A stretch of 64,000 nt of DNA from an uncultured Planctomycetota bacterium (GTDB lineage Bacteria > Planctomycetota > Planctomycetia > Isosphaerales > Isosphaeraceae): the NCBI GenBank assembly GCA_963845755.1, contig CAWJTV010000048.1:1-64000 (forward strand), in the 5' to 3' direction. Shown here one piece after another: positions 35,438 to 42,949 of this stretch. The position numbers and the translations under genes are program-made. The notes beneath the pieces were generated by a model. That model saw nothing but the letters and a program-made list of their open reading frames with translations. It did no database searches and was not told the origin of the DNA. Positions within the stretch are counted from its first letter, which is position 1. Each line of letters opens with the position of its first letter.

Positions 35438-36271
35438 TCACGCCGCTGAGGCATTGTCGGCCGATGCTTGCCAGATGGATGCCGCGGGGAGCCCCTGGAG
35501 CTCGGCGGCCAGCGAGGCATAGTCCTCGGCGCCACGGCTGGTCGGGGCATACTGAAAGATCGACTGTCCGAAGCTGGGGCATTCGGCGAGCTTGATGTTC
35601 CGCCGGATTCTCGTCTGGAACATCCTCGCCTCGGCCCAGGGCGCATCGGCCCTGCGCCGGCCCTCGAAGAAGGTATTCAGGTCCTCGATCACCTCGCTGC
35701 CGTGCCGGGTCCCGGCGTCGTAGAGACAGAGGACGATCCCCCCCACCTTCAGCTCGCGATTGACGCGCTTCGAGACCAGGTTCACGGTCTCCAGCAGCTT
35801 CGAGAGCCCGTGCAGCGCCAGGAAATGGGCCTGGAGCGGGATTAGGACCTCGGTGGCCGCGCACAGGGCGTTCAGGGTCAGGACGCTCAAGGACGGCGGG
35901 CAGTCCATCAGCACGAAGTCGAACGGCTCGGGGTCGGCATTGATCTGGTCGCGCAGGATGACTTCCCGGCCAACCGTCCCCAGCAGTTCGAGCTCGGCCC
36001 CGGCCAGGTCGATGTGACTCCCGCAGATCGACAGGTTCGGCACGACCGAGCGGCGGACCTTGGCCAGGGGGAGTCCGTCCGTTAAGACTTCATAGAGCGA
36101 GGGACCCGAACGCCCCGGCAGGAGTCCGAGGTGCAGCGTCGCATGCGCTTGAGGATCGAGGTCTAGCACCATCGTCTTGTGTCCGGCGATCGCCAGCGCG
36201 GCGGCCAGGTTCACCGTTGTCGTCGTCTTGCCGACGCCGCCCTTCTGATTCAACACCGCGATCCGTCGCAT
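35438..36271 (-). CDS. parA: ParA/Soj-family ATPase
   Basis: NQKGGVGKTTT, DLDPQ, DCPPSL, RIRRNIKLAECPSFGQSIF. Confidence 0.93.
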   Translation of the reverse strand: MRRIAVLNQKGGVGKTTTTVNLAAALAIAGHKTMVLDLDPQAHATLHLGLLPGRSGPSLYEVLTDGLPLAKVRRSVVPNLSICGSHIDLAGAELELLGTVGREVILRDQINADPEPFDFVLMDCPPSLSVLTLNALCAATEVLIPLQAHFLALHGLSKLLETVNLVSKRVNRELKVGGIVLCLYDAGTRHGSEVIEDLNTFFEGRRRADAPWAEARMFQTRIRRNIKLAECPSFGQSIFQYAPTSRGAEDYASLAAELQGLPAASIWQASADNASAA

Positions 36272-36561
36272 CTCTTACCCTCCCACGACTGGCATGGCCC
36301 GGTTGATCAAGGTCGTCCGTGCCGTCCACCGAGCGGCTTGACGCGGAAGCATAACGACTTCCGCCGGATGCGCAAAGGCGAAACGCGATGTCGCGCGGCC
36401 ATTTCGTTAGCAGCCAGATCGAGGTCTCAGAGGCTTTGAAAGAATCGTTCCCACATGACAAATCCAAAATAAAGAATGGATGGAAATCCTGTTGACATAG
36501 GGCATTTCGTTCATTGAATCTTGAATCGGGACTCCTTCTATCCGGTACTCTTCCCATCCTG

Positions 36562-37587
36562 TCAGGCTTCGTATAGTGTCGGCCAGACGGCGGCGAGATC
36601 GGCAACCTGCTCGGCCGGGACCGTCGAACCCGGCCGGGAGGAGCGGGCCAGCAGCCGCGCCAGGTCGCCCGCCTCGACCGCGGGGATCCTCGCGGTCTCG
36701 GCGGACCGCCTCAGTGAGCGGCCGGGCGAGCCGGTCGCGGTGGTCCGGATCGTGACCCGTCGCGGCGGCGGGCCTCCCGAAAGGATTATCGTCAGGCCGC
36801 CGGGACCGGTCAGCATGAGGCTCGCCCCGGCGAGCAGCTCGGGCGAATCGCCGCGCCAGGCGCGGGCCATCTGCCGCCGTTGCGCCTGCGCGGCCGGGTC
36901 GCCCTCGATCACCCGCTGGTCCTCGCGCTGCTCCTGGGCCGTCGTCCGCAGCATCGTCTCGAATCGGGCGTAGCGCAGACCATAGTCGATCAGACCCAGG
37001 ATCAGGAACACGCCCGCCAGCACGCCTGACAGACGGAACACCGACCGGCCCGCCGCCCGCGCCAGGGCCGCGACCTCCAGCCGGCTGAGCGCCTGGAGTT
37101 CATGCCATCCATCGCGAAGGACCCAGGCCGAGACGGTGACCACGACGACCGCCTTGACCATCGCCCAGGCCACATTTCCCGACCGGACCGCAAGTCCAGG
37201 ACCCGTTCCCGGCGTCCAGAGTCGTGCCGGATCCGGGGCGATCAGACTGGTCGCAAAGAGCCCCGTCACCTGTAACTGGTGCGCGGCCAGCGCCGCGCCA
37301 CCGAACGCGACAAGGACGATCCCGAGCGGCCAGGCCAGCACGAGGAGCACGCTCCGAATCCGAGACGCGACGACGGCGGGATCGGCCGGGAACGCCGGCA
37401 TCGTCATGGAATCCGACACGAGACGCATCATCACCGCCGCCAGCTCTTTGCCGGATACGCCCAGCACGATCACGGCCACGAGCCAGCCCACGGCGGCCGT
37501 CAGTTCCGGGCTATGCACGGCCTGACCCTGCTCGCGCGCCTGTTGCCGGCGATGCTTCGATGGTGGCTGTGTCCGATCTTCGGACAT
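36562..37587 (-). CDS. flhB: FlhB/SctU-family export switch protein, divergent
   Basis: EDRTQPPSKHRRQQAREQGQAVHSPEL, four TMs, EQRED..EGDP, LARLL; NPTH position reads GPGG. Confidence 0.88.
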   Translation of the reverse strand: MSEDRTQPPSKHRRQQAREQGQAVHSPELTAAVGWLVAVIVLGVSGKELAAVMMRLVSDSMTMPAFPADPAVVASRIRSVLLVLAWPLGIVLVAFGGAALAAHQLQVTGLFATSLIAPDPARLWTPGTGPGLAVRSGNVAWAMVKAVVVVTVSAWVLRDGWHELQALSRLEVAALARAAGRSVFRLSGVLAGVFLILGLIDYGLRYARFETMLRTTAQEQREDQRVIEGDPAAQAQRRQMARAWRGDSPELLAGASLMLTGPGGLTIILSGGPPPRRVTIRTTATGSPGRSLRRSAETARIPAVEAGDLARLLARSSRPGSTVPAEQVADLAAVWPTLYEA

Positions 37588-37684
37588 GATTCATCCTTGA
37601 CTGTGAGGGATTCCCATCCGGGATCGGGATGATTCCTGACTCGGGAATCTGAAATCTCGCATCGTGATTTCCCGATCTGCCTGC

Positions 37685-41225: not shown

Positions 41226-42709
41226 GAGGCGCGCCCTCCCTGCGCGGTCCAGCGCTGGAGCACGCTGGCGGCGGCCTCGGGGTCACGACGGACCAGCTCG
41301 CGGACCCGCTCCGAAGGATTCGGTTCGTCGGCCGAGTCCGCCCGATAGCGTCGCGTCCGGCCCTCCGTCTCCGGCAGTCGAGCGGGCCGGCGCGCGACCT
41401 GGATCCAGGACGCCAGGGCCGTCAGCAGGGTGAAGGCGACGGCGGCGGCGACGGCCGCCACGATCCCCCAATCGGTCGCCTTCCGCCGCGCGTCGGGCAG
41501 CACCGACGGACGGCCCACCGGACCGTCGGGGAATGTGTCAACCTCCACCGTCCACGACGGGACTTCCATCTTTACCAGCTTGATGATCTGCTCCTTGGTG
41601 CGAGCAGCCAGCTCGCGGAGCACTTCGGGAGTCGGCTCGCGCTGATCGGCCGTGGGGTGCATGAGGTTGAAATAGAAACTCCGCGGCACATTCACCAGCA
41701 CCTGTCCCTGCTCGGACAGCACGGGCGGGGCCGGGGTCGGACGGGCCGCTTCGACGATCGTCGGCACGGGCTCATCGAGATCGATCGGCTGATTGACTCC
41801 CATGGCGGGCGCAGGGACGGGACGAGCCCGTTCGGGGGCGTCGGTCGCCGCCGGGGCCGGTCGCGGGGACTCGTCGTGTCGCTCCATCAACCGAACCCAT
41901 ACATGGACTCCCTTGATATAAGACAGCTTCTCCAGGAGCTTCTTCTTTAGCTCTTCTTCCCGCGCCTGGTCGCGCGATGAGCTGGCCTCCGACGGGTTGC
42001 GCGGGTTGAAGATCAAATTCCCACGGATGTCGATCACCGTGATCGACTGCTCGGTCAGCTCGGGCTCGTTGCCGAGCAGGATCGTCGGGATCAACTGCCG
42101 GGTCCGGCCGGGGAGCGGTCGATTCGGCTCCGTCTCGACCGTGACGAACGCGGAGGGTTTGCCCCTGAGGTGCCGAGTCCCGGTCGAGCGGGGCCATCGG
42201 ATCGATACCTGCGATGCGACGATCCCATCGAGTTTGTTGAGGCACCCCTCGATGGACCGCTCCTGGCGGAGCCGCTCGTTCTGCTCCTTCTCCCGCGTCG
42301 TCTTCATGATCGAGTCCCACCAGTCCTCGGGAGCGCGGATCTCCTCGAAGGACGGCGGCCCGACATGCAGCTTGGCGAACACGATGACGGCCTGATCGTA
42401 CTGGTCGGCGGAGATCTCGACCTTGCGGTCGTCGACGCGATAGGAGATCCCCTTCTCGTCGAGGGCCTGGCCGATCCGCCTCAGGTCGTCCGACGAGAAT
42501 AGCCGGCCCGAAGCGAGGTAGTGCGTCCCGGTGGGGACCAGGGCTGTGGGACCCCAGTAGACCGCCGCGGCCAGGCCGAGGACCAGCGCCAGGATCAGGC
42601 TCGCGCGGACCATGGGACTGCGGGCCATCATGGCGCGCCGGAATCGATCGACGCCGGCGCGTATCCAGGCCATCGGCGCGGTGGAAGACAAGCGATCGAG
42701 GGTCCGCAT
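41222..42709 (-). CDS. fliF: FliF-like MS-ring protein, divergent
   Basis: TM1; IGQALDEKGISYRV; ERSIE..LDGI..KPSAFV..ITVID.RG; TM2; C-terminal VRELVRRDPEAAASVLQRW; overlaps the fliG start. Confidence 0.82.
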   Translation of the reverse strand: MRTLDRLSSTAPMAWIRAGVDRFRRAMMARSPMVRASLILALVLGLAAAVYWGPTALVPTGTHYLASGRLFSSDDLRRIGQALDEKGISYRVDDRKVEISADQYDQAVIVFAKLHVGPPSFEEIRAPEDWWDSIMKTTREKEQNERLRQERSIEGCLNKLDGIVASQVSIRWPRSTGTRHLRGKPSAFVTVETEPNRPLPGRTRQLIPTILLGNEPELTEQSITVIDIRGNLIFNPRNPSEASSSRDQAREEELKKKLLEKLSYIKGVHVWVRLMERHDESPRPAPAATDAPERARPVPAPAMGVNQPIDLDEPVPTIVEAARPTPAPPVLSEQGQVLVNVPRSFYFNLMHPTADQREPTPEVLRELAARTKEQIIKLVKMEVPSWTVEVDTFPDGPVGRPSVLPDARRKATDWGIVAAVAAAVAFTLLTALASWIQVARRPARLPETEGRTRRYRADSADEPNPSERVRELVRRDPEAAASVLQRWTAQGGRAS

Positions 42710-42918
42710 CAAGCCCTCCGGACAAGAGGATCGTGCCGCCGAGTCGAGGCGTCCCGCTCCACGTCGCATCCTACCGCGTCGCCTCACGTTCGGATCGGGT
42801 CGCCCGACCTGGCCCGTCCGGTCGCCCCCCACGGACAGGGCCCTAGCCGACCGCCCATTCCGAGAAACCGCCGATCGAGGCGTGCGACTGCCGGCGTAGA
42901 GGACCGTTTCCGGCGCGG

Positions 42919-42949
42919 AGAGTTATCCACAATCGACGCCGTTTGTCAA
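42919..42949 (-). promoter_or_regulatory. Putative fliF promoter overlapped by a perfect DnaA box
   Basis: Minus strand TTGACA (42949-42944) with a weak -10 (GATAACT); TTATCCACA at 42923-42931. Confidence 0.5.

Follow-up and report, generated by a model that had tools for sequence, protein, structure and literature searches.

A family-wide minimal flagellar export system in Isosphaeraceae, with FlgM as a candidate substrate

Introduction

Reduced flagellar systems are already known from non-motile bacteria. In Bacillus subtilis, nothing beyond FliF, FliG, FliK, and the gate is reportedly required for FlgM export, a result attributed to Calvo and Kearns in 2015. In Salmonella, removal of the FlhB C-domain in a flk-null strain with raised flhDC led to FlgM-Bla export without rod, hook, or FliK (PMC13344023), and export independent of FliH, FliI, and FliJ is possible in mutants (PMC4230889). 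Here we analyze 64,000 nucleotides of planctomycete DNA (the window, positions 1-64000 of contig C48 of the source genome, G000) with seven consecutive flagellar genes, fliF-fliG-fliO-fliP-fliQ-fliR-flhB. Together with genes on other contigs they constitute a genuine minimal flagellar export system that is under selection and kept throughout the family. Our confidence is evenly balanced for the interpretation that we favor, namely that the FliF ring and the gate, with FlhA, FlhF, FlhG, FliA, and FlgM, form a proton-driven pump that moves FlgM into the periplasm and frees sigma-28, and that they do not serve holdfast secretion.

A literature search gave no account of this planctomycete system, which as far as searched is not in print; subscription papers and supplements could hold one. 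In a survey of export genes, FliP and FlhA are the only ones scored for Isosphaera pallida, and the main text leaves planctomycetes unmentioned (PMC6456723). The string "Planctomyc" is not in the main texts of PMC12248157, PMC13277936, and PMC12199754, the supplements of which may list such genomes. The hat-like structure described in a preprint (10.1101/2021.09.03.458937) is a different, FliF-independent object.

Results

The window carries an unbroken flagellar export operon

The source genome was placed in Isosphaeraceae (family f1) from the labels of homologues. Its completeness is 88%, and weight for absences is therefore carried by the family survey, part of a class survey of 220 genomes, each at least 95% complete and including 40 of this family. 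The features of the operon are as follows.

41222..42832, minus strand: fliF, MS ring, likely start 42709 (PF01514, E 8e-15)
40590..41225, minus strand: short fliG, FliG_N joined straight to FliG_C, with the FliM-binding middle domain deleted in frame
39829..40389, minus strand: fliO, gate assembly chaperone, start uncertain (PF04347, E 1.2e-6; TIGR03500, E 3.9e-9)
38891..39832, minus strand: fliP, export gate (PF00813, E 3.9e-61)
38544..38810, minus strand: fliQ, export gate (PF01313, E 2.3e-20)
37685..38455, minus strand: fliR, export gate (PF01311, E 3.1e-44)
36562..37587, minus strand: flhB, full length, no NPTH cleavage site (PF01312, E 1.1e-44)
42922..42950, minus strand: promoter-like element ATTGACAA...GTGGATAAC, 5' of fliF

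All seven open reading frames (36562-42832) are unbroken and matched Pfam families above cut-offs: YscJ_FliF, FliG_N plus FliG_C, FliO, FliP, Bac_export_3, Bac_export_1, and Bac_export_2. The fliF and fliG genes overlap at 41222-41225, and fliO and fliP at 39829-39832. An earlier note, made from the letters of the window, had described seven co-oriented flagellar homologues, none frameshifted, with two overlapping pairs; Pfam, NCBIfam, and the coordinates confirmed this. Among NCBIfam models, flagellar ones outscored injectisome ones for FliP, FliQ, and FliR, and FlhB slightly favored SctU (102.9 bits versus 97.1 bits for the flagellar model); all four proteins scored under the equivalog cut-offs. 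The order fliF-fliG...fliP-fliQ-fliR-flhB was kept in 28 of 29 loci of relatives, G016 having fliF and fliG on a separate contig, and it matches the order in the flagellated relative G031. Because FliP, FliQ, and FliR favor flagellar models, because FliO, FliG, FlhF, and FliA are linked, and because the gene order is that of G031, the apparatus is classed as flagellar, and its origin appears vertical and not injectisome-derived.

In 16 of 17 loci the element upstream of fliF comprises a TTGACA box and, downstream of it, a similar second element; it probably acts as a promoter. Exact TGTGGATAA, which we take to be a reverse DnaA box, lies inside it in 8 of the 17 loci and might couple expression to the cell cycle. 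The element was also considered as a sigma-28 promoter but not assigned as one, its motif being unlike that of flgM.

The remaining genes lie on other contigs

The gene run flhA-flhF-flhG-fliA was located at C5:135451-141329, flgM at C42:263.4 kb, and a FliM/FliN-type fusion at C36:486910-488238. The earlier note had listed flhA, flhF, and fliL-M-N as absent. This holds for flhA and flhF in the window but not in the genome; for fliM and fliN it is qualified by the fusion on C36. The absence of fliM from the operon is not special, because two annotated flagellated relatives also lack it there. The presence of FlhA, FlhF, FlhG, FliA, and FlgM elsewhere in the genome points to sigma-28 control.

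In 19 of the 29 relatives' loci flhA comes after flhB, both on one strand. In the source genome flhA is preceded by an IS5-family transposase and a 206-residue open reading frame (C5:133781-135312, L033); the latter sits 5' of the whole operon in G001 and L171, which suggests that the fliF-flhB block has moved in G000. FlhA retains R85, R94, R147, R154, D158, K203, D208, and D249 (numbering from the Salmonella alignment); its channel residues are thus intact, and FlhA_C is full length. A weak second match to the FlhA C-terminal region (E 1.2e-7) was seen at C16:57946-58281 (L032), in a fragmented region near tetratricopeptide repeat genes. No flhG match was obtained between flhF and fliA in several relatives' loci. 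G000 has a single YscJ/FliF copy, and FliA is 88-97% identical within Isosphaeraceae.

Rod, hook, filament, export ATPase, and stator were not found

FliP was present in 40/40 Isosphaeraceae at least 95% complete, and rod/hook proteins (PF06429) were found in none of these 40 nor in G000. In a first sample of 24 family genomes FlhA was detected in 23, FlgM in 23, and a FliM/N domain in 16. No flagellin scored above cut-off in the 24 (one match fell below it) or in the 25 with G000 included, and FliI (PF18269) was likewise absent from the 24 and from the 25. The best FliI-like matches in G000, two adjoining ones of 25-34% on C20, are probably F1 subunits. Among four family genomes searched for each, none had FliH, the MotB plug, or FliK above cut-off. 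FliE, FliJ, FliL, FlgD, and FlgN were sought in G000 with single-sequence queries, a weaker search; FliJ gave no match by tblastn or phmmer, and FliE gave one, inside a long unrelated open reading frame. Profile hidden Markov models (HMM), tblastn, and phmmer revealed no complete flagellar set elsewhere. The note had named such a set as what would refute its interpretation; it was sought genome-wide and in relatives. A published description of four family genomes mentions only "poor representation" of flagellar genes and an absence of swarmer cells (PMC5352709).

As components of a flagellar export apparatus, FliP, FliQ, FliR, FlhB, FlhA, and FliO are all present, and the FliH-FliI-FliJ complex and an autocleaving FlhB with FliK are not. 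The rod, hook, and filament, the MotA/MotB stator, and the full FliG-FliM-FliN C ring of a flagellum are missing, as are the SctN ATPase and separate SctJ ring of an injectisome. The system is neither flagellum nor injectisome.

The retained proteins are remodelled under purifying selection

The ratio of nonsynonymous to synonymous substitution (dN/dS) was computed pairwise (NG86) between G000 and six relatives; columns in alignment windows below 40% identity were left out, a step that biases the values downward, and high GC tends to raise them. For the genes of the window the ratio was 0.06-0.46 over the six pairs and below 0.5 in every pair. By gene or domain it was 0.06-0.23 for fliQ, 0.28-0.38 for the FlhB C-domain, 0.09-0.14 for FlhA, 0.08-0.15 for FlhF, and 0.03 for FliA; FliF, FliO, and FlhB are divergent, with ratios up to 0.46. 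In a quick tree of planctomycete FliPs, 22 proteins of the family stood on one side of a branch with support of 100. The FliP gasket loop reads GLFMLPP in alignment with Salmonella FliP.

A single in-frame deletion has left FliG with an identical core of 167 residues at 24 of 27 loci; frameshifted drafts account for the three exceptions. The AlphaFold model of FliG (pLDDT 85) matched FliF-bound FliG_N (5tdy) over residues 1-66 (Z 10.2, root mean square deviation (rmsd) 1.7, 65 aligned) and FliG_C (3ajc) over residues 58-156 (Z 14.9, rmsd 1.9, 98 aligned). The FliG middle domain is the FliM site, which its loss removes. Charges of the torque helix, by the residue numbering that we presume, are lost as well; several are missing in flagellated G031 too, so that this motif alone is weak. 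A second, stand-alone FliG_C open reading frame follows fliG in G040 (L138:9871-12262) and several Isosphaeraceae (L044, L144, L148, L034), not in G000.

FliF retains RBM1-2 and the FliG-binding tail, the latter conserved in 21 loci. Its collar segment in G000 is 60 residues long with 23% Pro, compared with 91-92 residues and 5% Pro in two flagellated relatives, and spans 31-114, mostly Pro-rich, residues in ten proteins of the family. FlhB of G000 has GPGG at the position of NPTH and a new GGPPP loop. Three of the four residues of the early-substrate pocket, which includes A286, P287, and L344 (PMC13344023), namely these three, are altered. None of 22 FlhBs of the family carried NPT, and the C-domain is gone in three of them; NPT[HE] was kept in 3/3 flagellated control proteins. 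The loss of motifs stated in the note is confirmed by the GPGG replacement, the missing FliG middle domain, and the short, Pro-rich FliF collar. The data also agree with its proposal of selected repurposing and not decay: FliP is retained throughout and rod/hook genes are missing throughout, the dN/dS ratios are low, and the FliG core is shared. By these sequence comparisons the retained set is supported as being under selection.

FlgM is the sole canonical substrate found

FlgM was 94 residues long in 13 family genomes. In model systems the FlgM export signal lies in the N-terminal residues. In these 13 genomes residues 1-36 were 75% identical, compared with 78% for the sigma-binding half, with pN 0.16 and pS 0.62. 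The flgM promoter is of the sigma-28 type in 13 loci of the family. When a promoter matrix was built from 12 relatives, G000 excluded, it placed G000 flgM at the top of 11,823 upstream regions, and only flgM rose above controls in the sigma-28 regulon scan of G000.

A full-length FlgM match was obtained in 18 of 19 genomes that keep the gate without a rod and in 0/39 gate-less genomes; the latter gave a partial match in 36 of 39, in 34 cases to the C-terminal part only. Within family f4, all five fetched gate-keeping genomes with a recognizable operon carry long FlgM; FlgM is short and diverged in three genomes without such an operon, two of them gate-less and one with FliP only (two genera; small numbers). 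The idea that FliA is simply kept together with the gate was rejected, FliA being present in 80/80 genomes regardless.

The flgM leader (about 150 nucleotides, L164:1245-1394 on C42) contains two conserved hairpins, one showing GGA in the loop, which resembles what we take to be the CsrA-site consensus; the covariation term is weak (-0.14), Rfam gave no family in the flgM loci, and G000 has 12 CsrA-like open reading frames by motif. A PilB/GspE-like ATPase gene follows flgM (C42:263463-267468), as in G001, G004, G015, G021, and G024, and a Fur-like gene follows it in flagellated relatives and G025; both names come from sequence motifs. The essential-gene supplements for Planctopirus limnophila (P. 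limnophila) had no match for FliA, FlgM, FlhA, FliP, or FlhB; the rows seen use COG names and are uninformative.

Rod-less gates recur in other planctomycetes

Outside the family, the class survey held 19 genomes with FliP and no rod, and 16 of their fliP loci were fetched; fliH-fliI is still in the operon in 5 of the 16. In G040, FliF is fused to FliG_C and FlhA has 596 residues. Among 15 FlhBs of such genomes, 12 (from nine families) end after the linker helix and three are full length without NPT[HE]. On the quick FliP tree, which lacks G204 and G146, the rod-less label outside the family needs five changes, of which strong branches force only two. Several independent rod-less origins are therefore likely, though not proven. 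Gate and rod were both lost in 34 of 54 genomes of family f5, and 39 planctomycete genomes have neither.

Neighboring genes of the window

Two minus-strand genes flank the operon.

35438..36271, minus strand: parA-family ATPase (PF13614), a neighbor outside the system
43391..43975, minus strand: 194-residue Cys/Gly/Ser-rich protein with a signal-peptide-like start, often 5' of fliF, no Pfam family

The note had counted parA in the cluster. It is a chance neighbor and was rejected as a member: no close homologue adjoins the operon in the 29 relatives' loci, the one weak match (30%) being in G002. The 194-residue protein has 563 homologues, with no function among the 120 listed; its operon membership is doubtful because the promoter-like element separates its gene from fliF. 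Two plus-strand open reading frames at 34522-35402 resemble one frameshift-split gene, which fits assembly indels. At 30301-33789 a large protein shows, by reading of its sequence, two DUF1559-like repeats fused to a long N-terminal region.

Discussion

The proposed FlgM pump is built on several observations: the set of genes found, the purifying selection on them, the deletion in FliG, an FlhB that has lost its cleavage site or its C-domain, the intact FlhA charges, and a 94-residue FlgM whose N-terminus is conserved and whose gene has a sigma-28-type promoter of its own. FliO would aid assembly of FliP, FliQ, FliR, and FlhB within the FliF ring, with short FliG as a cap. FlhA would draw on the proton gradient, and export would run without FliH, FliI, and FliJ. 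The remodelled FlhB may no longer keep the gate in its early mode. FlgM would be the cargo, crossing to the periplasm and being destroyed there; FliA so released would re-make FlgM in negative feedback, and FlhF might place the pump at a pole. Without a rod to take it beyond, cargo could get no farther than the periplasm. The earlier suggestion of holdfast, stalk, or fimbrial secretion was not supported: no such substrate was found, and a rod-less gate opens to the periplasm alone.

Several points weigh against a FlgM pump. In Salmonella, late export is blocked when FlhB cannot be cleaved (N269A; PMC7911332), and most members of the family, G000 included, keep a full-length uncleavable FlhB C-domain under selection; the proposal therefore requires that the remodelled C-domain not block. 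The Salmonella FlgM-Bla result needed flk loss and overexpression (PMC13344023). The contrast of long and short FlgM is confounded by family, most gate-less genomes being of f5, and the N-terminal part of FlgM was matched in just 5 of 12 flagellated f5/f15 controls, where two paralogues exist. FliA occurred in every one of the 80 genomes tested, among them the 39 that have no gate and no rod; of these 39, 36 also carry a FlgM-like C-terminal domain, so that sigma-28 control can persist without a gate. No recurrent sigma-28 target besides flgM emerged among 100 of 116 pattern matches in ten genomes. Conservation of the FlgM N-terminus could also have a different cause, for example a role as a degradation tag. 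In the G000 assembly flgM is frameshifted just past its first codons and flhF has one in-frame stop; 17 of 44 tested genes are similarly broken there and G001 is intact at both, so that these breaks are likely, rather than demonstrated, assembly errors, although breaks as such count against the pump.

A further point is a pair of SctK-like and SctQ-like genes in 34 of 40 family genomes, which hints at sorting of other cargo. If the pair were a borrowed sorting platform, the gate would secrete non-flagellar proteins into the large planctomycete periplasm, and FlgM export would be absent or secondary. The model of the 327-residue protein on C36 had PscK as its best fold match (6uie; Z 9.4, rmsd 4.4, 169 aligned), with FliG domains next, and in most loci seen its gene lies before the FliM-FliN-type fusion; a second YscJ/FliF ring that this protein could serve is missing from G000, FlhA_C is full length, and a flagellum-less Lysobacter secretes non-flagellar proteins through such a system (PMC7688988). 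We consider this unlikely, if worth serious attention. The pair was not found in the other 6 of the 40 family genomes, nor in a set of 40 planctomycetes from outside the family, including 17 that keep the gate without a rod; there is no ATPase or FliH for a sorting pair to carry and no candidate substrate co-conserved in the operon, and the Lysobacter system needs FliI (PMC7688988).

Other features of the pair are recorded here. The SctK-like gene and the fusion occupy C36:485904-488238 (L140:7905-10239). Foldseek gave no match to the SctK-like model at E <= 0.001, its top ten rows being FliG. In 6 of 15 loci listed, the fusion has a Met 27-30 residues before the marker motif of its last domain, several with a purine-rich stretch upstream; this Met resembles the internal start of SctQ-C. 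The nearest look-alikes of the pair outside the family are in chlamydial and myxococcal clusters.

Ring and gate might instead be a structural platform and not a pump, either a polar or budding landmark set by FlhF and FlhG or a CORE-type base for membrane tubes. CORE reportedly initiates nanotubes with neither FliF nor FliI (PMC6456723), and all six CORE genes are present here. FlhF is kept at low dN/dS, so that the polar landmark role named in the earlier note stays a candidate, and the possible DnaA-box-like site (consensus as assumed above) lies on the fliF promoter in about half of the loci. A platform, however, leaves two things unaccounted for, namely why the FlhB switch domain was lost repeatedly and why FlgM is long in gate-keeping genomes; the 39 genomes with neither gate nor rod imply that budding does not need the gate, and the missing flhG match between flhF and fliA in several loci also speaks against it. 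The nanotube role of CORE is, in addition, disputed. We regard this explanation as quite improbable.

It is very unlikely, in our judgment, that ring and gate serve as an assembly checkpoint that is read by a sensor kinase and signals without export. In Campylobacter FlgS reads FliF/FliG and the gate, a set that equals the retained one, and in flagellated G031 flgB comes after genes for a kinase and a sigma-54 activator. The window, however, holds no operon-linked kinase gene (no search was made for an orthologous kinase), and the FlhA channel residues are intact. A slowly decaying relic is already largely refuted and barely credible: the divergence of FliF, FliO, and FlhB, frameshifts in some drafts, and the broken flgM and flhF of G000 would fit it, but FliP is retained in all 40 genomes, the FliG deletion is fixed, the promoter element is conserved, dN/dS is below 0.5 in every pair, and the G000 breaks match the assembly background rate, whereas f5 lost gate and rod in most genomes.

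The proposed FlgM pump offers a concrete, testable answer to the question of what half a flagellum is used for. If true, it would amount to a minimal type III exporter occurring in nature, one that has ring, gate, and FlhA but no ATPase, ruler, or axial proteins and serves gene control and not building or injecting. A broader proposal, which we hold tentatively and think doubtful, is that planctomycetes repeatedly turned the gate into a signalling device, a pole-positioned, proton-driven FlgM pump that determines at what time, and whether in mother or bud, their nearly universal sigma-28 is active, with convergent loss of the FlhB switch domain locking the late mode. That rod-less lineages have repeatedly lost the FlhB C-domain provides an evolutionary test for a 2026 model in which its removal flips the secretion switch. 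The planctomycetes also offer a graded series (genomes with the ATPase, without it, with a trimmed FliG, and with a FliF-FliG_C fusion), which illustrates stepwise reduction of the flagellum, and FliA, present throughout the Planctomycetia tested, is an unstudied regulator in budding bacteria.

Comparison with known systems

Buchnera hook-basal bodies are likewise a reduced set in a non-motile bacterium, but keep rod and hook. The chlamydial remnants (FlhA, FliF, FliI, FliH, and sigma-28) resemble the present system in being a reduced set with flhA-fliA linkage in the Planctomycetes-Verrucomicrobia-Chlamydiae lineage, and differ in the separate injectisome and the retained ATPase. To our knowledge, the FliG deletion occurs in neither Chlamydia nor Buchnera. 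The minimal FlgM set of B. subtilis is alike in that FliF, FliG, and the gate suffice without a finished hook-basal body; it differs in including FliK and a cleavable FlhB, and in being defined by mutants of a motile organism.

Lysobacter enzymogenes OH11 is non-flagellated and keeps flagellar export, as here; its FT3SS (a type III secretion system of flagellar kind) retains FliI and FlgD and secretes enzymes (PMC7688988), whereas ATPase and axial genes were not found in our system. Genomes with CORE only (Myxococcus, Chloracidobacterium, and Succinatimonas) keep FliO, FliP, FliQ, FliR, and FlhB as well as FlhA without most other flagellar genes (PMC6456723), as does the planctomycete system, in which FliF, FliG, FlhF, FlhG, FliA, and FlgM are kept in addition. 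The Salmonella flk-null FlhB-deltaCCD strain shares FliF/FliG, FliOPQR, FlhA, FlhB, FlgM, and FliA, lacks rod, hook, and FliK, and has its FlhB switch domain disabled or removed (PMC13344023). In contrast to that strain, most members here retain an uncleavable, remodelled FlhB C-domain, FliH, FliI, FliJ, and a flagellar FliM are missing, and the arrangement is natural and fixed in a family.

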